A stretch of DNA of 64,000 nucleotides from Anaeromyxobacteraceae bacterium (GTDB lineage Bacteria > Myxococcota > Myxococcia > Myxococcales > Anaeromyxobacteraceae). Location of the stretch: the NCBI GenBank assembly GCA_047602405.1, contig JASGHJ010000001.1, forward strand, positions 224,001-288,000. Reading direction: 5' to 3'. Of the stretch, positions 1 to 13,724 are shown one piece after another (the first letter of the stretch is position 1; every line of letters starts with the position of its first letter). The notes below the pieces were generated by a model that was given only the letters and a program-made list of their open reading frames with translations, did not search any database and was not told the origin of the DNA. A program made the position numbers and the translations under genes.

Positions 1-64
1 CAACCAGCACGCCTACGACGGCACCGTCGACGTCGCGAAGCTCGCGCCCGGGAAGGAGGCCTAG
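1..64 (+). CDS. 3' end of upstream gene, probably the molybdopterin catalytic (alpha) subunit; partial
   Basis: Frame from base 2 reads NQHAYDGTVDVAKLAPGKEA*, stop 2 nt before the beta-subunit ATG; identity inferred from position only. Confidence 0.5.
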   Translation, partial: NQHAYDGTVDVAKLAPGKEA

Positions 65-66
65 CC

Positions 67-1134
67 ATGACCACGACCACGACGCCGGGCGGCGCGCAGC
101 GCCAGCTCGCGATGGTGATGGACCTCAACAAGTGCATCGGCTGCCAGACCTGCACGGTCGCCTGCAAGACGCAGTGGACCAACCGGAACGGCCGCGAGTA
201 CATGTACTGGAACAACGTCGAGACGCGCCCCGGTGACGGCTACCCGAAGAAGTGGGAGTCGCTCGGCGGCGGGTTCGACGCGGCGGGGCAGCTCAAGGAC
301 GGCGTCGTCCCCTCCCGCCACCTCGAGTACGGCACGCCCTGGGACTTCGACCTCGGCGCGGTCGCCGGCGGCGCCGAGGTGAGGCCGCAGGGCAGCCTCG
401 AGCACGGCGCGAACTGGGACGAGGACCAGGGCGCGGGCGAGTTCCCGAACTCGTACATGTTCTACCTGCCCCGCATCTGCAACCACTGCTCGAACCCGGG
501 CTGCCTCGCGGCCTGCCCGCGCAACGCGATCTTCAAGCGCACGCAGGACGGGGTCGTGCTCGTGGACCAGGAGCGGTGCGAGGGGCTGCGCTACTGCATC
601 GCCGCCTGCCCCTACAAGAAGATCTACTTCAACCCGAAGATCTCGAAGTCGGAGAAGTGCATCTTCTGCTTCCCCCGCGTCGAGAAGGGCCTGCCGCCGG
701 CCTGCGCGCAGCAGTGCGTCGGGCGCATCCGGTGGGTCGGGTACCTCGACGACGAGGCCTCCCAGGTCTCCCAGCTCGTGAACCGGTGGAAGGTCGCGCT
801 GCCCCTCCACCCGGAGTACGGCACGCAGCCGAACGTCTACTACGTGCCGCCGCTCCCCGGCCCGCCGAAGTTCGACGCGCAGGGGAAGCCCATCCCGAAC
901 TCCGAGCGCATCCCGCTCGCCTACCTCGAGTCGCTGTTCGGCCCCGAGGTGAAGCGGGTCCTCGGGGTCATCGAGGCCGAGCTGGCGAAGCGGAAGGCCG
1001 GCAAGCCGTCCGAGCTCCTCGACACCCTCATCGCGTTCAAGCACTCGGACATGTTCCGCCTCGGCGCGCCGGTCTCCGAGGGGCTCGTCCCGCTCGGCCG
1101 CCGCGGCGTGAAGTCGACGGAGGTGAAGGGATGA
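67..1134 (+). CDS. Type II DMSO reductase family Fe-S beta subunit (NarH/PcrB/SerB/EbdB-like)
   Basis: MDLNKCIGCQTCTVACK, YWNNVET, NWDEDQG, YLPRICNHCSNPGCLAACP, ALPLHPEYGTQPNVYYVPP motifs. Confidence 0.93.
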   Translation: MTTTTTPGGAQRQLAMVMDLNKCIGCQTCTVACKTQWTNRNGREYMYWNNVETRPGDGYPKKWESLGGGFDAAGQLKDGVVPSRHLEYGTPWDFDLGAVAGGAEVRPQGSLEHGANWDEDQGAGEFPNSYMFYLPRICNHCSNPGCLAACPRNAIFKRTQDGVVLVDQERCEGLRYCIAACPYKKIYFNPKISKSEKCIFCFPRVEKGLPPACAQQCVGRIRWVGYLDDEASQVSQLVNRWKVALPLHPEYGTQPNVYYVPPLPGPPKFDAQGKPIPNSERIPLAYLESLFGPEVKRVLGVIEAELAKRKAGKPSELLDTLIAFKHSDMFRLGAPVSEGLVPLGRRGVKSTEVKG

Positions 1135-2192
1135 TCACGCTCTGCTTGATGGCGGTGATGGCCGCGACGTCGCCGGACGCCGCCCTGGCCGCGGAGACCG
1201 TGCTCGTGAAGGACGTCCCCGGGCCGCTCACCGCGGACGCGGCGTCGCCGTCCTGGGACGCCCTCCCCGCCCTCGAGGTCGCGGTGGGGCCGCAGCAGAG
1301 CGTCCGGCTCGTCGACCGGATGGCCAACGCCGCGCTCGACGCGGCGAGGGGCCCGCGCGCCGTGAAGGTGCGCGCCGCCACCGACGGGAGTTCCCTCGCC
1401 GTCGTGCTCGAGTGGGCGGACGCCACCGAGGACCGCGCCGCGGGCGAGACCGACCAGTACGGCGACTCCGCCGCGCTGCAGTTCCCGGAGCGGTTCGGCG
1501 CCGGGCAGCGCCTGCCGTACGTCGGCATGGGCGATCCCGACCAGCCGGTCGCGCTCTACCTCGCGCGGGCCCGGAAGGAGGGCGTCGCCGTGCGCGAGGC
1601 GGTCGCCGCCGGCTTCGGCTCGACCACGCGCGCCGCGCTCGGCGGGGCGAAGGTCTCGATGCGCTTCAAGGACGGCGGGTGGCGCGCGGTCTTCGTGCGG
1701 CCGCTCACCGCGCCCGCCCACGACCTCGCGAGCGGGCTCGTCCCGTTCGCGGTCGCGGTGTGGGACGGCGCCCGCGCCGAGCGCGGCGGCAACAAGGCGC
1801 TGTCGAGCTGGAAGGTGCTCCGCGTCGAGCGCCTCCCCGCCGACGCCGCCTACGCGGCCGAGCTCGCCCGGGGCCGCCGGCCCGAGGACCAGGGCGACCT
1901 CGCGCGGGGGAAGCAGCTCGTGAACGGGAGCTGCATCGCCTGCCACCGGACGCCGGAGCGGAAGGTCGCCCGGGTGGGGATGGCGCCGGACCTCTCCGCC
2001 ATCGGCGTCATCTCGAGCCCGGCCTACCTGCGCGACTCGATCGTCTCGCCGAGCCAGGTGGTGCTGCAGCGCAAGGGCTGGTTCCGGAAGGACGCGTCCG
2101 GCAAGCTCGTCTCGACGATGCCGCCCTACGCCGCGCTGCCGCCGGCCGACGTGGACGCGATGGTCACCTACCTCATGACCCTCGGGAGATAG
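1131..2192 (+). CDS. Haem b gamma subunit (EbdC/SerC-like) fused to C-terminal cytochrome c
   Basis: ATGA overlap with beta gene; signal peptide; LEWAD, DSAALQFP, YVGMG, FAVAVWDG..ERGGNK motifs; CIACH and distal Met (TMP). Confidence 0.85.
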   Translation: MITLCLMAVMAATSPDAALAAETVLVKDVPGPLTADAASPSWDALPALEVAVGPQQSVRLVDRMANAALDAARGPRAVKVRAATDGSSLAVVLEWADATEDRAAGETDQYGDSAALQFPERFGAGQRLPYVGMGDPDQPVALYLARARKEGVAVREAVAAGFGSTTRAALGGAKVSMRFKDGGWRAVFVRPLTAPAHDLASGLVPFAVAVWDGARAERGGNKALSSWKVLRVERLPADAAYAAELARGRRPEDQGDLARGKQLVNGSCIACHRTPERKVARVGMAPDLSAIGVISSPAYLRDSIVSPSQVVLQRKGWFRKDASGKLVSTMPPYAALPPADVDAMVTYLMTLGR

Positions 2193-2196
2193 CCCC

Positions 2197-2625
2197 ATGC
2201 CCAGGAAGACCAGGCTCGCCACGCTCCTCGCCTCCTCGTTGCTCGCCGCCCCGCTGCTCGCCTCACCGACGGTCGCCGCCGCCGCCCCGGGCGACGAGGT
2301 CGAGGTCACCGCCGGCGTCGTCACCGGCCTGAAGTGCGCCCTCGACGCCAAGGAGAAGCACGACCTCAAGCTCCTCACCGCCTGCCCGCCCGCGGAGGCG
2401 ACGAAGGGGCTGGTGGTGTTCGACGTCGCCGAGAAGCGCATCTACGGCATCTCGACGAAGGCCGTCCGCCGCTTCGAGCTCGAGGCCGCGTTCGGCGGCG
2501 GGTCGATCGACTTCACCGGCAAGGAGGTGAAGAGCGACCCGAAGACCGAGGTCACCACGGTCGACGTCACGGAGTACTCGATCGCCCGCCGGCCGAAGCC
2601 GGGCGCCTTCAAGGGCTGCCTCTAG
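2197..2625 (+). CDS. Secreted hypothetical protein
   Basis: Signal peptide, host-like codon use, tight operon spacing. Confidence 0.7.
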   Translation: MPRKTRLATLLASSLLAAPLLASPTVAAAAPGDEVEVTAGVVTGLKCALDAKEKHDLKLLTACPPAEATKGLVVFDVAEKRIYGISTKAVRRFELEAAFGGGSIDFTGKEVKSDPKTEVTTVDVTEYSIARRPKPGAFKGCL

Positions 2626-3494
2626 TGACCTCCGGCCTCGTCCAGCTCGGGAAGGCGGGCCGCCCCGCGGCCGACCTCTCCTTCGGCCACACGCTCGCGC
2701 CGAACGATCGCGCCGCGTTCGCGCGGCACGTGCTGCTGTTCACGAGCGGCAAGGGCGGGGTCGGGAAGAGCACGGTCGCGGTCAACGTCGCGAGCGCGCT
2801 CGCCCAGCGCGGGCTCGCGGTCGGCCTGCTCGACGCCGACGTGCACGGCCCGAGCGTCCCGCGGATGCTCGGGCTCGCCGGCGAGCGGGTGCGCTGGGGC
2901 GACGACGACCGGATGATCCCGGCGGAGAACTTCGGCCTCAGGGTGATGAGCGTCGGGCTCACCACCCCCGAGGCCGACACGCCGCTCGTCTGGCGGGCGT
3001 CCGTCGCGACCTCGGCGCTCGTGCAGCTCGTCGAGGACGTCGCCTGGGGTCCGCTCGACGTGCTGTGCGTGGACCTGCCGCCCGGCACCGGCGACGTGCA
3101 GCTCACCCTGGCCCAGGAGCTCCGGGTCTCCGGGGCGATCGTGGTCACCACCCCGCAGGCGGTGGCCACCGACGACGTCCGCCGCGCGATCCGGATGCTC
3201 CAGGAGTCCAGGGTCCCCGTGACCGGGGTCGTCGAGAACATGTCGAGCTTCGTGACACCCGACGGCGGGGTTCACCATCCGTTCGGGCAGGGCGGCGGCC
3301 GCTTGCTGGCCGAGGCCTACGGGGTGCCGTTCCTGGGCGAGCTGCCGCTCGACCCCGGGATCCGGGAGGCGTCCGACGAAGGACGCCCCATCGCGGCAAC
3401 CGGAACGGAGGCGCAGAGGGTACACTTCGTCGCGCTGGCCTCGGCGATCGTCGCCGGGCTGGGGCTGACACCGAGGGAGGAACAGACACCATGA
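2625..3494 (+). CDS. mrp: Mrp/NBP35 (ApbC) Fe-S carrier ATPase
   Basis: SGKGGVGKST, DADVHGPS, DLPPGTGD, VENMS; GTG overlaps upstream stop. Confidence 0.9.
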   Translation: MTSGLVQLGKAGRPAADLSFGHTLAPNDRAAFARHVLLFTSGKGGVGKSTVAVNVASALAQRGLAVGLLDADVHGPSVPRMLGLAGERVRWGDDDRMIPAENFGLRVMSVGLTTPEADTPLVWRASVATSALVQLVEDVAWGPLDVLCVDLPPGTGDVQLTLAQELRVSGAIVVTTPQAVATDDVRRAIRMLQESRVPVTGVVENMSSFVTPDGGVHHPFGQGGGRLLAEAYGVPFLGELPLDPGIREASDEGRPIAATGTEAQRVHFVALASAIVAGLGLTPREEQTP

Positions 3495-3865
3495 AGAAGC
3501 TCATCGCCATGCTCGCCGTCGCCGCCGCCGCGCTGCTCACCGCCTCCACCGCCCGCGCCGCCGAGCCGAAGAAGTCGCCGGAGCTCGTCGCGAAGGGGAA
3601 GACCTCGTACGAGACCAACTGCGCGGCCTGCCACGGCGCGAAGGGCCTCGGCGACGGCGAGGCCGGCGCCGCGCTCGACCCGAAGCCCCGCAACCTCGTG
3701 AAGGACAAGTTCAAGAAGGGGGACAAGCCGGCCCAGGTCCACGCGATGCTGAAGACCGGCATCGACGGCTCCACGATGGTGTCCTTCGGCCACCTGCCGG
3801 ACGAGGAGCTGTGGGGCCTCACCTACTACGTGCTCGATCTCCGCGCCGCGAAGGGCAAGAAGTAG
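3491..3865 (+). CDS. Periplasmic monohaem cytochrome c
   Basis: Signal peptide, CAACH, PKPRNL, TMVSF. Confidence 0.9.
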   Translation: MKKLIAMLAVAAAALLTASTARAAEPKKSPELVAKGKTSYETNCAACHGAKGLGDGEAGAALDPKPRNLVKDKFKKGDKPAQVHAMLKTGIDGSTMVSFGHLPDEELWGLTYYVLDLRAAKGKK

Positions 3866-3884
3866 CCGCGCTCGCCCCCGGGCC

Positions 3885-4727
3885 ATGAGCTCCCCCCACC
3901 CCGCGGGCGCACGCGCCGCGGGCGCCCTCGCCGTGGCCGCCGCCCTCGTCGCGGCGGCCCCGGCGGGCGCCCAGACCGCCGCCCAGATCCGCCGCGCCGA
4001 GGCCGAGATCGGCGTCGAGGAGAGGCTCGGCGTCCTGGTGCCGCGCGCCGCGACGTTCGAGGACTCGGAGGGCCATCCCCTCGCGCTCACCGCGCTCGCG
4101 GGGCGGCCGCTGCTCCTCTCGTTCAACTACACCGGCTGCCCCCGCCTCTGCTCGGTGCAGCTCGCCGGGCTCGCCCGCGGGCTGCGCGACCTCGGCTGGC
4201 AGGGCGACCGCTTCGAGATCGCCACGGTCTCCATCGACCCCGCCGACGGGCCCGCCCAGCTTGCGAAGTACAAGGCGACCTACGTCGGGCAGGCGGGCGG
4301 CCTTCCCTCGATCGCCGCCGCGTGGCACTTCCTCCACGGGAAGAAGGAGGACGTGGACGCGCTCGCCGCCGCCGTCGGGTTCAAGTACCGCTACGACCCG
4401 AAGACGAACGAGTTCGCCCACCAGGCGACGGTCGTGGTCCTCACCGCCGACGGCCACGTGAGCGGCTACCTGCACGGCGTCACCTACGCCGCCGACGCGC
4501 TCCGCACCGCGGTCGGCCGCGCCGAGGCCGGCAAGATCGCCACCGCCGCGGAGCAGAAGGACCTCGGCGGCTTCCTCCTCTCCTGCATCGGGTTCGCCCC
4601 CGACGACCCCTTGCCGCTCGCGCTCAAGATCATGCGCTTCGGCGGCGTCGCCACCGCCCTCTTCCTGTTCGGCTTCCTCGCCTTCCAGATGCGCAAGGCC
4701 CGCACCTCCCCGAGGACCACCCCGTGA
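3885..4727 (+). CDS. SCO/SenC family copper chaperone
   Basis: YTGCPRLC (CxxxC), FAH, C-terminal TM helix; precedes cox genes. Confidence 0.88.
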   Translation: MSSPHPAGARAAGALAVAAALVAAAPAGAQTAAQIRRAEAEIGVEERLGVLVPRAATFEDSEGHPLALTALAGRPLLLSFNYTGCPRLCSVQLAGLARGLRDLGWQGDRFEIATVSIDPADGPAQLAKYKATYVGQAGGLPSIAAAWHFLHGKKEDVDALAAAVGFKYRYDPKTNEFAHQATVVVLTADGHVSGYLHGVTYAADALRTAVGRAEAGKIATAAEQKDLGGFLLSCIGFAPDDPLPLALKIMRFGGVATALFLFGFLAFQMRKARTSPRTTP

Positions 4728-5758
4728 CGAGACTCCCCCTGGACACCGTGACCGCCCTCGCGGCGGCCGCCCCCGGGTACCTGCCCGCCCGCGCCTCCAC
4801 GGCCGCGGGCGCGGTCGACTCGGTCTTCCTCTTCATCTTCTGGGTGAGCGCCTTCTTCCTCGCGCTCATCCTCTTCCTCACCGTCCTGTTCGTCGTGAAG
4901 TACCGCAAGCGCCCGGGCCGCGAGGCGCCCGAGGCGTCGCCGTCGCACTCGACGAAGCTCGAGCTTCTTCTGGTCGGTCATCCCGCTCGCGCTCGTCATG
5001 GCGATGTTCGTCATGTCCGCCCGCGCGTACGTGACGATGACCCGGCCCGAGGGCTCGACGAAGGGCGCGCTCAAGGTGGGCGTCACCGCGAAGAAGTGGT
5101 CGTGGTGGTTCGACCACCCGGAGGGCAAGGGCGCCCCCGACCTGCACCTCGTGGTGAACCGGCCGGCGGAGCTCGTGCTCTCGTCGATGGACGTCATCCA
5201 CTCGCTCTACGTCGCCGAGTTCCGGCTCAAGCAGGACGCCGTGCCGGGCCGGTTCACCCGGATGATCTTCACGCCGACGATGGCCGGCACCTACCCCATC
5301 CTCTGCACCGAGTTCTGCGGCACCGACCACTCGCGGATGCTCTCGCAGGTGGTGGTCCACCCCGACCAGGCCTCCTATGACGCCTGGGCGAAGGAGGGGA
5401 TGGGCCCCGACGTGAACGTCGTCGAGGCCGGGAAGAAGGTGTTCCTGCAGCGCGGCTGCGTCGCGTGCCACAGCACCGACGGGACCCGCAAGGTGGGCCC
5501 GACGGTGAAGGGGCTCTACGGGCACGACGTGCCGCTCGCCGACGGCACGACCGTGAAGGCCGACGACGAGTACATCCGTGAGTCGCTGCAGAAGCCGGGC
5601 GCCAAGGTCGTGGCCGGGTTCCCGAACGTCATGCCGCCCGCCGTGCTGCCCGACGGCGACCTGAAGGCCCTGATCGCCTACCTCGAGTCCCTCGCGTCCG
5701 ACGCCGCCAAGGGCGGCGAGGCCGCCCCCGTCCCCGCTGCTGCCCCCGGAGCCCATCC

Positions 5759-5762
<4 letters not shown>
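4724..5762 (+). CDS. coxB: Cytochrome c oxidase subunit II with C-terminal cytochrome c (caa3-type); one-base frameshift near 4965
   Basis: [17 protein letters not shown] (CuA), CVACH; removing one T at gagcttcttc restores KLELFWSVIP. Confidence 0.9.
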
Positions 5763-7417
<1,655 letters not shown>

Positions 7418-7421
<4 letters not shown>

Positions 7422-8099
7422 GCTCCAACGGCGACGCCGCGAACCCCAACCTCGCGGTCCAGTTCGACGACATGAAGTCGCAGATCTCGACCGGGCAGCT
7501 CGGGGTCTGGCTCTTCCTCGGCTCGGAGAATCCTGTTCTTCTCCGGCCTCTTCACCGCCTACGCCGTCTACCGCGCGAACCACCCCGAGCTGTTCCGGTA
7601 CGCGCACTTCTTCCTCGACTGGCGCCTCGGCATGACGAACACCTTCGTGCTCGTCAGCTCGTCGCTCACCGCCGCGTGGGCGGTGCGCTCCGCGCAGCTC
7701 GGCGACACGAAGCACCTGCGCCAGAACCTCCTCCTCACGATGGCGCTCGCGGCGGGGTTCCTCGTCGTGAAGTACTTCGAGTACTCGCACAAGCTGCACC
7801 ACGGCATCGGCTGGGGGGCGGCCTGCCACCCCTCCGAGGAGATCCTGGCGTCGCTCCCCGCGGCGGCCCACGCGCTCCCCATCCCGTCGAACCTCGGGAC
7901 GTTCTTCTCGATCTACTACCTGATGACCGGCCTCCACGGCGTGCACGTGGTGGTCGGGATCGGGCTCTTCGGCTGGCTGTTCAAGCGCGTGAAGCAGTTC
8001 GGGGCCGAGAACTGGGGCGCGGTCGACGGCGTGGCGCTCTACTGGCACCTCGTCGACCTCATCTGGATCTTCCTCTTCCCGCTCTTCTACCTCATCTGA
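7418..8099 (+). CDS. coxC: Cytochrome c oxidase subunit III; one-base frameshift near 7529
   Basis: GVWLFLGSE then [27 protein letters not shown]. Confidence 0.9.
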
Positions 8100-8110
8100 C
8101 GGAGCCGCCC

Positions 8111-8500
8111 ATGTCTGACGCTCTTTCCGCTCACCCCGAGCGTAGCGCCGCCGCAGGCGGCGCGGAGTCGAGGGGCCACTCCGGAACCCACGTCCTCTCG
8201 CCGAAGGTCCTCCTCACGACCGCGGGGGCGCTCTTCGGCCTCACCCTCCTCACGGTCGCGGTCTCGCTCGTCGACCTCGGCCACCTGAACATCGCGGTCG
8301 CCCTCGGGGTGGCGACCGTGAAGGCCATCCTCGTCGCGGGCTGGTTCATGCACCTGCGCTACGAGGGGCGCTTCAACCTCGTCGTCCTCGTCGGCTGCGC
8401 GCTGTTCGCGATCTTCATGATCGGGTTCATCGTGTTCGACACGACCGAGTACCAGCCGGACCTGCGCGCCCACGACGCGGCGCAGGTGCAGAAGAAATAG
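8111..8500 (+). CDS. coxD: Cytochrome c oxidase subunit IV
   Basis: Three TM helices, [15 protein letters not shown]. Confidence 0.85.
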
Positions 8501-8517
8501 GGGATACTGGCGGGCCG

Positions 8518-9549
8518 ATGGCCACGACGAAGAAGCCTCGCCCGGAGGCCCGCCTCCTCGCCCTCGCCTCCTTCATCCTCGCCCAGCGCGCGCCCGTGAC
8601 CCGGGCGCGCATCTACGAGCGCTTCCCCCGCGACTACACGGGCAAGGCGGCGGCGAGGGAGAAGAAGTTCACCCGCGACAAGGCCGACCTCGAGGAGCTG
8701 GGCTTCGTGCTCGTCGGCGAGCCGCTCGAGGGCAACGAGGAGGACCAGTTCGGCTACCGGATCGACGCCCGGGCCTCGACGCTCCCGGCCATCGGGCTCT
8801 CGGCCGACGAGGCCGCGGTCGTCTGGGCGGCCGGCACCTCCGCGCTGCGCCTCTCCGACCACCCGCTGCGCGACGCGCTCGAGAACGCGCTCCGCAAGCT
8901 CGCGATCGGCACCCGCACGCTGCCGCCGCGCGTGGCCGCGCCCGACCTCGACGAGCCCGAGGGCGCCCCCGCGCCCGACGGCGACGCGCTCCTCGACACG
9001 CTCGTCGGCGCCTGGCAGCGCCGCAAGCGCGTCACCCTCGAGTACTTCCGGGTCGCGTCGAACACCCTCTCGACGCGCGAGGTGGACCTCTACGGCTGGG
9101 CGCAGCGCCGCGGCGAGTACGTCTTCGTCGGCCACTGCCACCTGCGGAAGGATCTCAGGCTGTTCTACCTGTCGCGCGTCCACGGCGCGAAGGCGAACAG
9201 GAAACGGCCCGCCCAGCACGACTACGAGATCCCGGAGAGCTTCGACATCGGCGCATGGGCGCGCCAGGCGGTGTGGGACTACCGCGTCCACGCGCCGGTC
9301 GAGGCGCGCGTCCGGTTCACGGGCTCCCTCGCGCCCATCGCCCGTGACCTCGTCCCGGAGGCGACGCTCGAGAAGCAGCCCGACGGGGCGCGGCTCGCCT
9401 CGTTCCAGGTGCGCAACGTCGAGGGGCTCGCGCGGCAGGCGCTCGCGTGGGGCCCGGAGGCCGAGGTGCTGGCGCCGGACGAGGCGCGCGCGACCGCGCG
9501 CGCGCTCCTCGCGCGGCTCGCCGCGGGCCTCGAGGGAGGTGCCGCGTGA
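8518..9549 (+). CDS. HTH-WYL-WCX transcriptional regulator, PafB-like
   Basis: RLLALA..KKFTRDKADLEELG N-terminus, REVDLYG..YVFVGHC..RLFYLSRV WYL region, WGPEAEVLAP. Confidence 0.88.
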   Translation: MATTKKPRPEARLLALASFILAQRAPVTRARIYERFPRDYTGKAAAREKKFTRDKADLEELGFVLVGEPLEGNEEDQFGYRIDARASTLPAIGLSADEAAVVWAAGTSALRLSDHPLRDALENALRKLAIGTRTLPPRVAAPDLDEPEGAPAPDGDALLDTLVGAWQRRKRVTLEYFRVASNTLSTREVDLYGWAQRRGEYVFVGHCHLRKDLRLFYLSRVHGAKANRKRPAQHDYEIPESFDIGAWARQAVWDYRVHAPVEARVRFTGSLAPIARDLVPEATLEKQPDGARLASFQVRNVEGLARQALAWGPEAEVLAPDEARATARALLARLAAGLEGGAA

Positions 9550-10517
9550 ACCCGACGCTCTCCCGCCTGAGGCGGCTGCTCCTCGTCATCCCGGCGGCGG
9601 CGAAGGAGTCGCTCGCCGGCCGCGTGCTCCCGCTCGAGAAGGCCCGCCGGATCGCCGGCGCGACCAGCGTGCGGCAGGTCCTCGAGGACGTGGACGCCAT
9701 CAAGGAGCTCTACCTCGGCGCCGGCGTCGACGAGGACGACCCGCTCTGGGTCCAGGCCTCCGACGACGGCATCGAGGTCGTGTACGCGAGCGGCCTCGAC
9801 GCCCCCCTCGCGCTCTCGCTGCCGGAGGGCGCGATGCTGCTCGCCGCGCTCCGGCCCTTCGAGCGGACCGCCGGGCCGGCGGTGCGCGGCGCGGCCCGGA
9901 AGCTCCGCAAGGCCATCCCCGAGCCGCTCCGGCCCGCCGCAAATCAGCTCGTGCGCGGCGTGGACGTGGTGGCCCCGCCGCCGGCGCCGCACCTCGACGT
10001 GCTCCGCGACGCCGCGGACCGCAAGCGCGAGGTCACCCTCCAGTACCGCTCGGTCGCCGACGGCAAGGTCGCGCCGCGGGTGGTCGAGCCCCGCGTGGTG
10101 TTCCATCGTGACGGCGTCTGGTACCTCGCCGCCTTCAACGTGGCGAAGGGGGAGGAGCACCTCTTCCGCGTCGATCGCATGGCCGAGGTCGTCGTGGGCA
10201 CCCGCACCTTCGAGCGCCACCGCGGCCCGGACCCGGCCCGCTACGCGAAGCGGCGGCTCTACTTCGCGAGCGGCGCCGAGCGCGACGTGAGCTTGCGCCT
10301 CGACGGCGCCCCCGCCCGCCTCGCCCTCCGCCGCGGCGGCGGCCGGGTGACCGAGAACGGCGACGGGACCGCGACGGTCACGAAGCGCATGACCACCGGC
10401 AACCACCTCGCCTCGGTGGTGCTCGGCCACGGCGGCGACGTGACCGTCACCGCCCCGGAGGACGTCCGCGAGGACCTCCGCAAGCGGGTGGCGGAGCTCG
10501 GGAAGCTGTACCGGTAG
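9546..10517 (+). CDS. HTH-WYL-WCX transcriptional regulator, PafC-like
   Basis: GTGA overlap; [10 protein letters not shown] start, [28 protein letters not shown]. Confidence 0.88.
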
Positions 10518-10530
10518 CCGTGAAGCCTCT

Positions 10531-10636
10531 CGGCGAAGTGTCCCCCGGGCCAGAGGCCCGGGGACACGGAGCCGATCCAGGGGAGGGGCCCATCAGCTTC
10601 GCTGATGGGGAGGGGGGCCTACGGCCCCCCCTGAAA
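10531..10636 (+). repeat. Structured dispersed repeat, copy A
   Basis: Shares GCGAAG..GGAGCsGATCC..CAGCTTyGCTG..GGGGGC-TAC-GCCCCC..GAAA with 20611 and 61436 copies. Confidence 0.8.
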
Positions 10637-10637
10637 C

Positions 10638-13476
10638 TCAGAAGTCCTTCATCGGGAACAGGTCGTCCGCGTCCTTCACGGCCGGGGGCGGCATGGGGGC
10701 GGCCCTCGCGGCGGGGAGCGGCTTCGCGGCCCGCGGGGCGCCGGACGCCTTGCGCGGCGGGGCCAGGCGACCCTGCTCGGGCGCGCGGCCTCGCGCCTCC
10801 AGGTGGAACGCGCCGACCATCGCGGCGAGCTCCTCGGCCTGGCCCGACAGCTCGCTCGCCGCCGAGGAGGACTCCTCCGCCGACGCCGCGTTCTGCTGGG
10901 TGACCTTGTCCATCTCGCCGACCGCCTTGTTCACCTGCTCGATCCCGGCCGACTGCTCGTTCGACGACGCCGCGATCTCCGCCACGATGTCGGAGACCTT
11001 CTGGATCCCGGCCCCGAATCTCGCCGAGCTTCGCGGAGACGTGCTTCGCGGTCGTCTCGCCCTCGCCGGCCTCCTTCACCGACTGCCGGATGAGCTCCTC
11101 GGTCTTGGTCGCCGCCTCCTTCGCGCGGAGCGCGAGCGAGCGGACCTCCTCGGCGACCACCGCGAACCCGCGGCCCGCCTCGCCGGCGCGCGCGGCCTCG
11201 ACCGCGGCGTTGAGCGCGAGGAGGTTCGTCTGGAAGGCGATGTCCGAGACGTCCTTGATGATCTGCGAGGTCCCCTCGGCGGAGGCCTTGATCCGGTTCA
11301 TCACGCCCTGCATCTGATCGACCGCCTGCGAGCCGTCGGCCGCGGCGGTGCGGGCGTTCTGGGCGAGGAGGTTCGCCTGCTGGGCGCTGTCGGCGGAGTG
11401 CTTCGTGCGCTCGGCGAGCGACTCGACGGACGCGCCCGTCTCCTGCAGCGAGGAGGCCTGCTCGGAGGCGCCGGAGGCGACCGCCTGGGACGAGGCGGCG
11501 ATCTGGGTGGCGGCGGAGGAGACCTGGTCGACCGCGGCGGCGACCTGCTGGAGCGCCTCGTGGAGCGCCTCGCCGGTCGCGTTGACCGCCTCCTTGATGC
11601 GGGCGTGGTCGCCCTGGTAGTCGCCCGAGACGCGCGCGCGGAGGTCCCGCTTCGAGAGCTGCTCGAGGACCTTCACCGCGTCGTTCACCGGCGCGATGAC
11701 CGCGTCGAGCGTGCGGTTCACGCCCTCGACGATCTTCCGGAAGTCTCCCTGGTGCTTGCCGGCGTCGGCGCGGGTCGAGAGGCGGCCGCCGATGGCGGCG
11801 TCGACGAGCGCGGCCGCGTCGCGGGTGAGCGCGCGGACGGCCTCGGCGCTCCGCTCGATCGCCGCGGAGATGGTGGCGTACACCTGGCGGGCCTCTGCGG
11901 TGTCGCCGTCCGCCTCGGCGACGGCGACGTCCATGGCGAGGTCGCCCTTCGAGAGCTTCTCGAGCGCGGCGACGACCCGCTGCGTCTCTCTCGCCTGGTA
12001 GGCGGAGACCTTCTCGGCCTTGCGCATCGCGCGGCGGACCGCGGTCTGGTCGGTCACGACCTCGAGCGCGCCGACCACCTGGCCCCGTGCCCTGATCGGC
12101 ACGGCGTTGTAGTCGATCTCGACGCCCGCGGCGGCGAGCGCCGCGTTGCCCTTCGGGCGCGCCACGGTCTGGCCACCGGCCGGCGAGCCCGTCTGGATCG
12201 TCTTCGCGGTGGCGCAGCGCTCCGTGCCGCAGTCGCCCGTGCAGAAGGCCTCGCGGCAGGGCCCGCCCTGGAAGTCCTGCAGCGCACGGCCGCCGACCGA
12301 GGTGGCCGCCTTGTTCATCCACAGGACCTTGAGGTCGCGGTCCACGACCATGGCCGGGGCGGGCACCGCGTCGAGGTGGGCCACGATCGAGCCCACGGAC
12401 TCGTTCACGCCCTCGACGATGCGCCGGTAGGCGCCCTCGTGCGCGGCGGCGTCGGCGCGGGTGAGCAGGCGCCCGTGCACGAGCGCGTCGGCGAGCTCCG
12501 CCGCGTCCGCCTCGAGGCGCTGCAGGGTCGCGACGCTGCGGTTGAGGCTCTGCTTCACGCCGTCGAAGTCGCCCTGCCACTCCTCGGTGATCGGCTCGGG
12601 GAGGTCGCCCTTCGCGATCCGGTCGAGGGACTCCGCCGCCACGTGCACCGGGCGGTGGTACGCGCCGAGGATCTCGTCCATCCCGGCGAGCACCGGCCTC
12701 AGCTCCGGGGCGAGCCCCTGGGCGTTCGACCGCTCCGAGAGGCGGCCCGCGACGACGGCGTCGCGCAGGCGGCCGGCCTCCCTGACGAGCGCGGCGAGCA
12801 TCGCGCCGATGCTGCGCGCGAAGAAGACGCCGAGCGCGACGAGGGAGAACGCGCCGAACACGACCGCGGCGAGGATGAGGGTCATGCTCCTGTTCGCGGC
12901 CGCGGCGCCGCTCGCGTCGGCGGCGTCGGCCTCCGCCAGGACGGCCTTCTTCGCGTTCTCGAGCGCGTCCGCGGCCTCCGAGAAGGTGGTCCGGGAGGAC
13001 GCGTAGATCGACCACGCCCGCTCCTCCGCGGCGACGATCTCCGGATCCTCCTTGCCCTCCCCGAGCGCAAGGCGGGCCTCGATCGCGCCGCCCGCGGCGA
13101 CCGCGGCCTTGGCCCACGGGCCGTACAGGCGGCGCCAGGTCTCCCAGGCCTCCTTGACCTCGGCGGTGTGCGGCCTCGACTCGAGGATCTTCGCGCCCTC
13201 CTCGGCCTGGGCGAGCTTCGCCGTCATGGCCTTGATGGCGTCGCGGCGGACCGACGGATACTCCCGGCGGAAGAGCGCGCTCTCGAGGTTCGCGACCGCG
13301 GCCGCCTGGCCCTCGGCGCAGGCGGCGAGCGCGTTGAGCGTCGGGACCGTGTTGTCGTGGAGCTCGTCGAGGCGCGCCTCGATGCGGCCGGCGCTCCAGT
13401 ACGCGAACCCGCCGACGGCGGCGAGGAGGAGGGTCGAGGCGAGGAACGCGGCCAGGATCTTCTGTGCGGTGGTCAT
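10638..13476 (-). CDS. Methyl-accepting chemotaxis protein (TM-4HB-TM, poly-HAMP, PAS-like); one-base frameshift near 11018
   Basis: [38 protein letters not shown]-terminal part continues in ORF 10638..10985. Confidence 0.92.
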
Positions 13477-13724
13477 CGAGGAGCCCTTGGGATGGACGCA
13501 GCCGCCCATCCAGGAGCAGGGGGCGTGCCTGCGGACCCCGCGACATCCCGCCGCGCCCACGCCCAGAATCTGCCGTGACTACGGCTCGTTCGTCCCTGGA
13601 GCTGGTCCCCTCGCACCCCGGGGCCTCGCACCCTGGGTTCGTCCGACCCCGACCCTGGCGACCACCGCGGGTGGCCGATCGGGAGCCTCGGCGCTAGGAA
13701 GCCCACTCCCTCGCCGGAGCCACC

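Follow-up and report, generated by a model that had tools for sequence, protein, structure and literature searches.

A type II molybdoenzyme operon of Anaeromyxobacteraceae as a candidate route to oxidise protein-bound sulfane sulfur with oxygen

What does a periplasmic molybdoenzyme act on when its genes run without a break into those of a terminal oxidase? The question is raised by the first 8500 nucleotides of a 64,000-nucleotide stretch from an Anaeromyxobacteraceae bacterium (GenBank assembly GCA_047602405.1, contig JASGHJ010000001.1; positions G000:C1:224001-288000 of the genome, hereafter the window), in which eleven co-directional genes on the + strand lead from the end of a molybdoenzyme alpha subunit to coxD. 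The initial annotation read them as a type II molybdoenzyme operon continuous with a caa3 (A2-type) oxygen reductase, either a periplasmic dehydrogenase chain to O2 through c-haems or an oxyanion reductase beside an O2-scavenging partner. We consider it probable, from sequence comparison and structural models, that the enzyme would oxidise sulfane sulfur bound to a cysteine arm and that the electrons would pass to O2; the more specific proposal of a Sox-independent periplasmic sulfur oxidation, with a rhodanese-loaded Cys-arm carrier of oligonucleotide/oligosaccharide-binding (OB) fold plugged into an oxidase cassette shared with Sox, has in our judgement an even chance. At stake is how sulfane sulfur is oxidised in several abundant sulfur bacteria that do so with neither SoxCD nor Dsr nor sHdr.

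All eleven genes were confirmed in window 1-8500 with the overlaps and gaps of less than about 20 bp that had been described (successively 2, -4, 4, -1, -4, 19, -4, -4, -4 and 11 bp, i.e., from -4 to 19 bp). To these we add five further upstream genes, three frameshifts in the cox genes and a WYL gene 17 bp behind coxD. The operon has its start about 6.4 kb upstream of the window, within the stretch G000:C1:206001-226000 (L001), and the window holds only its tail. The substrate was not wholly open as the initial annotation had left it, because the fixed partners of the enzyme, encoded outside the window, are sulfur-transfer proteins.

The alpha subunit (L001:15143-18064, +; 973 aa), of which the window contains only the 3' end (1..64, +; the rest of the gene lies upstream), carries a twin-arginine translocation (Tat) motif, the ligands of the iron-sulfur cluster FS0 and an Asp at the Mo-ligand position. 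Its FS0 motif HxxxCxxxC...C (H76, C80, C84 and C120) is invariant in 77 aligned sequences, as is D216, which aligns with D170 of PcrA, presumably the Mo ligand of that enzyme. An Asp ligand is named as the defining mark of the type II dimethyl sulfoxide (DMSO) reductase family in PMC6650914. The subunit matched TIGR03479 over its full length with 728.7 bits, below the curated cut-off of 984.75, and stayed under all curated cut-offs for alpha-type models, e.g., those of ebdA (305 vs 2000 bits) and narG (203 vs 1084 bits). Its best match in the PDB was PcrA (343 bits); the match to the NxrA structure 7b04 was partial (96 bits), and the identity was 34% to ClrA and 36% to a protein labelled as dimethyl sulfide (DMS) dehydrogenase. 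As judged from these motifs and matches, alpha is a divergent branch of the type II DMSO-reductase family. The residues F164, Y165 and W461 of PcrA are described as the gate of its substrate tunnel (PMC6650914); two of the three are changed in alpha (I210 and A211, the third being W510, with F or M at position 510 in other members of the clade), which suggests a wider substrate tunnel.

When alpha was placed in a tree of 43 rows (a quick LG+G4 tree, from which the incomplete L045 and 16 further rows were left out), it fell into a clade of its own with a support of 100. P0005 came next (99), followed by a DMS-dehydrogenase-labelled group (98, SH-aLRT, a likelihood-ratio branch test) that is sister to the alpha clade and does not include it, and then by the ClrA group (100); pNarG and NarG were placed far from the alpha clade and P0049, a proxy for EbdA-like proteins, in another clade. 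The reference rows were ClrA, haloarchaeal NarG, the genome's own NarG and labelled proxies, without characterised PcrA, SerA, DdhA, EbdA or NxrA. By its position among these rows, alpha is a separate type II clade, distinct from Pcr, Clr, Nar and Ebd. P0007, a relative of 943 residues within the clade, is on a long branch and has lost the FS0 His/Cys ligands; it may be a degenerate or non-catalytic paralogue.

The beta subunit (67..1134, +; TIGR03478, 518 bits, above the cut-off of 480.7) has 15 Cys in four groups, the pattern of three 4Fe-4S clusters and one 3Fe-4S cluster. Gamma (1131..2192, +; PF09459 and PF00034) is an EB_dh haem b subunit fused to a C-terminal cytochrome c with the motif C268-x-x-C271-H272 and M330, and its haem b ligands M133 and K222 are invariant with ClrC in the alignment. 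DMS dehydrogenase oxidises a sulfur atom and donates the electrons to cytochrome c. Like the operon described here, its genes DdhABC encode a Tat-exported alpha with His/Cys FS0 ligands and the Asp ligand, a four-cluster beta and a soluble Met/Lys haem b gamma, the potential of such a haem b being +324 mV in DMS dehydrogenase and +256 mV in EbDH (PMC8840923). In contrast to DdhABC, gamma is here fused to a cytochrome c, there is no delta chaperone, and rhodanese, YeeE and Cys-tail proteins are fixed partners.

Ahead of alpha, the operon begins with an ArsR-rhodanese regulator (L001:11628-12398, +; NF033788 over its cut-off) and rhd2, a secreted two-domain rhodanese (L001:12395-13333, +; PF00581 twice) with invariant C73, C79 and C268. 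A YeeE/TsuA sulfur channel follows (L001:13343-14473, +; PF04143), which reached 39.5 bits against the TsuA equivalog model (cut-off 400), then a 44-aa membrane protein (L001:14483-14617, +) and rhd3 (L001:14614-15076, +; frameshifted), a membrane-anchored protein of rhodanese fold that ends in GGGCL, has no Cys in the catalytic loop and has a tail that is disordered in the predicted structure (pLDDT, the per-residue confidence, < 50). YeeE-type SoxT proteins have been assigned to sulfur import and signalling in sulfur oxidisers in PMC11582611, and by analogy a YeeE next to an ArsR-rhodanese fits such a role here. Behind gamma lie the gene of a secreted, OB-fold-like protein with the C-terminal end FKGCL (2197..2625, +; the codon of Cys141 at 2617-2619), hereafter the FKGCL protein, a putative sulfur carrier, and that of an Mrp/ApbC Fe-S carrier ATPase (2625..3494, +; PF10609). 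Divergent from the operon are an SQR-like gene (L001:9762-11216, -; NF049943, 60 bits, cut-off 525), a SorA-like gene (L001:8127-9365, -; NF052245, 425 bits, cut-off 600) and a SorB-like cytochrome gene (L001:7756-8115, -; identified from sequence reading alone).

Conservation was scored in 51 GTDB loci (from the best 80 of 328 stretches, skewed to close relatives), mostly of Myxococcota but also of Bdellovibrionota, Aquificota and Pseudomonadota; the synteny counts exclude sorB and a small open reading frame (ORF) adjacent to sqr. Beta was found in 51 of the loci, rhd2, YeeE and rhd3 in 50 each, gamma in 47 and the FKGCL protein in 46, and seven core genes stand in the same order in 44/51. 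Of the YeeE cysteines that may correspond to the three positions of TsuA, C99 and C321 are present in 51/51 loci and C103 in 49/51. ArsR-rhodanese matches (32/51), Mrp (31/51), a SorA/SorT-like gene (13/51) and coxBA (14/51) were detected as well. A search with the carrier found the module in 34 of 301 sampled Myxococcota genomes (two matches partial). At L052:15955-17565, directly after the carrier gene, a SorT-like sulfite dehydrogenase is fused to a SorU-like cytochrome c. Six loci (L063, L082, L093, L100, L113 and L120) have a conserved divergent trio upstream of rhd2, consisting of a protein of about 190 residues (with LRV repeats in L063), one of about 120 residues, and Mrp.

The FKGCL protein had no Pfam or NCBIfam match. 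Across 62 aligned sequences C47, C63, Y83, G108 and F138-L142 are invariant, and these residues are kept between the two branches of the family (the second is described below), where identity is just 20-28%. Its AlphaFold2 model is OB-fold-like with a pLDDT of 85 (61 in the tail); a fold search with this model returned OB-type folds and no telling match (best Z 7.1, root mean square deviation 3.1, 77 aligned), and an Atlas search gave unnamed clusters, the nearest named one (DUF5818, at 0.86) lying below the threshold. The C-terminal end is FKGCL in 46/46 loci, and that of rhd3 is GGCL in 50/50, so that two unrelated proteins both end in a flexible tail with an invariant penultimate Cys; SoxY likewise has a C-terminal Cys arm (GGCGG in L132).

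A complex model of alpha (residues 73-964) and the FKGCL protein (residues 35-142) reached an interface score (ipSAE) of 0.86, compared with 0.00 for the best of three controls, with at least 80% contact agreement between runs and a partner pLDDT of at least 84. The mark applied to this score was reached by 116 of 157 solved pairs and by 2 of 215 mismatched ones, a calibration that is rough here, where our own alignments were used. It is unlikely that the score stems from template memory, because the fold search found no close solved relative of the carrier. The interface comprises residues in 61-69, 87-100, 133 and 135-139 of the FKGCL protein, and residues in 381-397, 500, 509-515, 771-796 and 949 of alpha; its loop 509-513 contains W510, at the position of the tunnel-gate residue W461 of PcrA. 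The FKGCL protein is thus predicted to dock on alpha with its tail at the tunnel gate, and we infer from the model that the tail may enter the active site.

A second branch was sampled with the 53%-identical query P0003, which returned 69 metagenome loci that, from their match to Thiovulum sequences, are probably mostly of Campylobacterota. rhd2 was found in 52 of them, YeeE in 1, rhd3 in 3 (these YeeE and rhd3 matches were all of Myxococcota type) and coxA in none. An ORF ending in FKGCL follows gamma in 49 of the 50 loci with room for it (a positional rule; the miss was recovered by a hidden Markov model), and the set rhd2-alpha-beta-gamma-FKGCL is kept. For Thiovulum, PMC9938260 places rhodanese genes in a six-gene operon together with "narG", "narH", an unannotated gene and one for a cytochrome c; the authors' search found neither sox nor dsr nor apr. 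The "NarG" in the tables has the motifs of the alpha clade; all of the 6/6 genomes have alpha and the FKGCL protein as single-copy core genes, which lie three genes apart in the Movile strain, and Sulku_2491/2492 are given as best matches (PMC9938260). The operon is transcribed: in transcripts per million, alpha has 1907/1525, the two rhodanese ORFs 1737/1884 and 919/278, gamma 1435/1836, beta 837/666 and the hypothetical gene 567/432, next to 2711/1056 for atpD and 794/268 for ccoN (PMC9938260). No description of the module as a sulfur system was found in the literature, subscription journals not covered, nor one of a protein-bound substrate for an enzyme of the DMSO-reductase family; the module is not described in the accessible text of PMC13609358, PMC10045233, PMC12998232 and PMC6397845, the supplements of which may list the genes.

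The oxidase cassette opens with a small secreted monohaem cytochrome c (3491..3865, +; PF00034), which is followed by the copper chaperone SCO1/SenC (3885..4727, +; PF02630), CoxB with the CuA motif and a fused cytochrome c (4724..5762, +; PF00116 and PF00034; +1 frameshift at about 4965), CoxA (5759..7421, +; TIGR02891 on both halves; +1 frameshift at about 6580), CoxC (7418..8099, +; PF00510; +1 frameshift at about 7529) and CoxD, the caa3-type subunit IV (8111..8500, +; TIGR02229, 61.6 bits, above the cut-off of 37.25). The assignment to the A2 type, made in the initial annotation from the pattern YSHPxVY, holds: the motif YSHPAVY lies at window 6527-6547, in helix VI, and CuA, a cytochrome c fused to subunit II and subunit IV are all present. 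Haem A synthase is encoded elsewhere in the genome (PF02628 over its cut-off, at C1:1962974). A promoter or terminator between the cytochrome c and SCO would have parted oxidase and molybdoenzyme, but a sequence scan of the junction (3865-3885) found no terminator-like or sigma70-like site, and the juxtaposition is conserved in the family: alpha and the accessory coxA are on the same contig within 10 kb in 16 of the 20 alpha-positive genomes (out of 92 Anaeromyxobacteraceae genomes), the remaining four (G013, G020, G029 and G068) being draft assemblies with the two genes on different contigs. An accessory CoxA with at least 70% identity to the L002 copy occurs in 20/20 alpha-positive and 12/72 alpha-negative family genomes, a comparison that is not an independent test because the genomes are kin.

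This oxidase is one of three with a CoxA in the genome; the copy linked to alternative complex III (ACIII) is 53% identical to it and the third 40%. Window-type CoxA sequences formed their own clade (97/99), apart from the ACIII-linked copy, in a tree from which the incomplete L010 was left out and in which L015 was less than half filled. The ACIII-linked caa3 (A2) oxidase of Myxococcota (L138 in this genome) has the same sco-coxBACD order and YSHPxVY motif, but the window copy, unlike it, is an accessory paralogue behind periplasmic donor modules. In the alpha-less congeners G006, G007 and G012, the cytochrome c-sco-coxBACD cassette stands directly after soxC-D-Y-Z-orf-A-X-B-H, a complete sox operon (L132:2650-15326 in G006, L141 in G007 and L142 in G012); Sox C, Y, Z, A, X and B of G006 exceed the NCBIfam cut-offs, its CoxA nests among the module-linked copies (95/93), and the window's small cytochrome c is 65% identical to the cytochrome after soxH in L132. 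No other family genome has a strong SoxY match; weaker SoxY-like matches (E 1e-10 to 1e-14) in seven family genomes, three of them alpha-positive, may be carriers of the pyrroloquinoline quinone (PQQ) type. In the genome studied here, tblastn with the L132 Sox proteins found no soxYZ, soxAX, soxB or soxD and only matches of 29-31% identity to soxC, PF13501 had 0 matches, and dsrA was not found. In G050 the cassette (L136:792-10249) has pqq biosynthesis genes on one side and a PQQ alcohol dehydrogenase on the other. Since the same cassette sits after sox, PQQ or molybdoenzyme modules, it is, by its gene neighbourhoods, a portable electron sink whose identified partners are oxidative (sox and PQQ). 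In the genome paper on A. dehalogenans 2CP-C, sox genes appear in a figure legend among those shown alongside the oxidase clusters (PMC2330069).

The cassette speaks for the direction of the reaction, oxidation, and not for the substrate. Of the dehydrogenase chain in the initial annotation, the direction therefore stood, supported by the family-conserved juxtaposition and the sox and PQQ partners of the cassette; the oxidase turned out to be a family-specific add-on, with the link absent outside Anaeromyxobacteraceae. The module is likely a second bacterial route of aerobic sulfur oxidation, unrelated to Sox, because it precedes the same cytochrome c-SCO-caa3 cassette as the Sox genes of its congeners. 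Both systems are periplasmic, with a proposed sulfur on a C-terminal Cys arm and a Mo enzyme donating to cytochrome c. Unlike SoxC, which belongs to the sulfite-oxidase family, alpha falls within the DMSO-reductase family without homology to it, and the carrier is OB-fold-like and not SoxY; there is no SoxAX or SoxB in the genome, and loading would be by rhodanese. In terms of sequence, the enzyme adds a new branch to a known family, with a seemingly Sox-like logic and no shared parts.

According to this proposal, thiosulfate or polysulfide would give up sulfane sulfur to Cys268 of rhd2, which would pass it to Cys141 of the FKGCL protein, while the membrane-tethered GGGCL arm of rhd3 and the YeeE channel might provide exchange with the membrane and with the ArsR-rhodanese sensor. 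The loaded FKGCL protein would dock on alpha with its tail threaded past the tunnel gate, as in the model, and the Mo centre would oxygenate the terminal sulfur with oxygen taken from water, two electrons per step, by analogy with the action of DMS dehydrogenase on a thioether. The product would leave as sulfite, no SoxB being present, and enzymes of the SorA/SorT type would complete the oxidation to sulfate. Electrons would run through FS0, FS1-4, the Met/Lys haem b, the fused cytochrome c, the small cytochrome c and CuA to O2.

Besides the kinship of the family genomes, several findings weigh against the oxidation of arm-bound sulfur. Cys141 is absent from the confidently placed contacts of the complex model, the contact of the tail with alpha 509-513 was read from two residue lists and not from listed pairs, and the model was built without the Mo cofactor. 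The Campylobacterota-type branch lacks YeeE and rhd3, and coxA was absent from its 69 loci; in the 51-locus set, 26 of the 40 informative loci (at least 5 kb after the carrier gene; 11 loci were too short) have no linked cox, so the link between module and oxidase that the initial annotation proposed to survey held within the family and failed beyond it. Of 5 distant genomes tested, 2 hold SoxY as well as the module, which therefore is not always a substitute for Sox. In G078 the cassette (L133:8161-15342) follows an unrelated 678-residue enzyme with a molybdenum-bis(pyranopterin guanine dinucleotide) (Mo-bisPGD) cofactor, below all curated cut-offs and with no beta subunit seen, and in G059 and G061 it has no donor module (the other five alpha-negative cassette genomes gave short or partly read stretches).

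A dehydrogenase acting on a free sulfur compound (sulfite, thiosulfate, DMS or a thiol), with the FKGCL protein as a fourth, structural or gating subunit, is unlikely in our estimate. It would agree with the position of the alpha clade as sister to DMS-dehydrogenase-labelled proteins (the labels are automatic source names and the identity is only 36%, which also tells against our proposal), with a large predicted interface formed mainly by the carrier body (residues 61-69 and 87-100), and with a cassette that argues for direction and not for substrate. But a structural role would not call for an invariant Cys in a tail modelled with low confidence, a feature repeated in a second protein, and sulfite is already handled by the linked SorA/SorT in 13/51 loci.

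A reductase of S, Se, N or Cl oxyanions fed from the cytochrome c pool, with the caa3 oxidase scavenging O2 or being a mere neighbour, is quite improbable. ClrABDC, SerABDC and PcrAB share the alpha-beta(-gamma) plan with the operon (Clr has the same three subunits), and the alignment with ClrC means that gamma subunits with a Met/Lys haem b work in reductases too, a further point against a dehydrogenase; rhd2 weakly matches ExtH, the rhodanese of a selenite/tellurite operon (57.6 bits, cut-off 200), and the ACIII of the genome could reduce cytochrome c. In an Aquificota locus (L046:15949-22585) genes for an Fe-S protein, NrfD, a Mo enzyme of 1095 residues, a TorD-like chaperone and a ferredoxin come after the module, a Ttr/Phs-like order that likewise speaks for reduction, and the published reading of the Thiovulum operon is a nitrate reductase (PMC9938260). 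Unlike Clr, Ser and Pcr, however, alpha forms a separate clade off ClrA and Nar, ClrD is lacking, F164/Y165 of PcrA are not kept, the operon has no quinol-oxidising subunit, and a terminal oxidase is linked. There is no chlorite dismutase (PF06778 had no match in the genome, which is 98.4% complete; the control was positive in 7/14), the narG model is far from reached and a separate NarG is present in a narGH cluster. Furthermore, an oxidase on the same cytochrome c would drain electrons from a reductase, and the identified partners of the cassette elsewhere are oxidative, so that this alternative of the initial annotation has lost ground.

Sulfur-delivery proteins exist for other Mo-bisPGD enzymes, and that rhodanese, YeeE and the Cys-tail proteins form a periplasmic maturation or repair relay to the Mo centre, or a tunnel cap, for an enzyme with a different substrate is very improbable, in spite of the lack of a TorD-type delta chaperone in the operon, also in its upstream part (the only PF02613 match of the genome lies by narGH, at C1:2353489), of Mrp being a maturation factor and of the tail nearing the tunnel in the model, since several Campylobacterota-type loci combine the FKGCL protein with a TorD-like gene, and the relay proteins carry signal peptides, whereas the cofactor is loaded before Tat export. 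A Thiovulum rhodanese transcribed as highly as alpha speaks against it as well (PMC9938260). Oxidation of arm-bound sulfane sulfur, if correct, would explain how Thiovulum and other bacteria without sox and dsr oxidise sulfur, would make many "narG" calls in Campylobacterota wrong, would add a protein-bound substrate as a new mode to the DMSO-reductase family, and would extend aerobic sulfur oxidation to Anaeromyxobacteraceae and further myxobacteria. The sox-cassette genomes G006, G007 and G012 lend themselves as a model for the aerobic oxidation of thiosulfate in Anaeromyxobacter.

The frameshifts in coxB, coxA and coxC are each due to one extra base (at about 4965, 6580 and 7529) relative to the 94%-identical L002. 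Contigs of 4/4 public runs lack the bases at 4965 and 7529, and those of 2/4 the one at 6580, the other two not showing the site; in either half of coxA, synonymous exceed non-synonymous differences from L002 (27:1 and 21:5), and +1 indels relative to G031 occur outside the operon too. The three frameshifts are probably assembly errors; that the cox genes are pseudogenes was ruled out by the intact L002 copies, the synonymous excess and the indels elsewhere, and a misassembly at the cytochrome c-SCO junction by a 6.3-kb contig of run X2 over 3400-6543.

Seventeen bp after coxD starts a WYL/WCX protein pair (window 8518-10517, +), PafB/PafC-like. It adjoins the operon in 1 of 51 related loci, and therefore tight spacing alone does not delimit the operon. 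Three terminator-like matches were found in window 1-10700, all intragenic (2.4 +/- 1.6 in shuffles). A large chemoreceptor-like ORF (window 10447-13560, -) is out of frame near its end, where a +1 indel at 11018 relative to G031 matches the pattern of the assembly errors. On the other side, two multihaem cytochrome c ORFs (G000:C1:204003-207397, +), the second with a membrane C-terminal part, were observed at a distance of 14 kb upstream of alpha.

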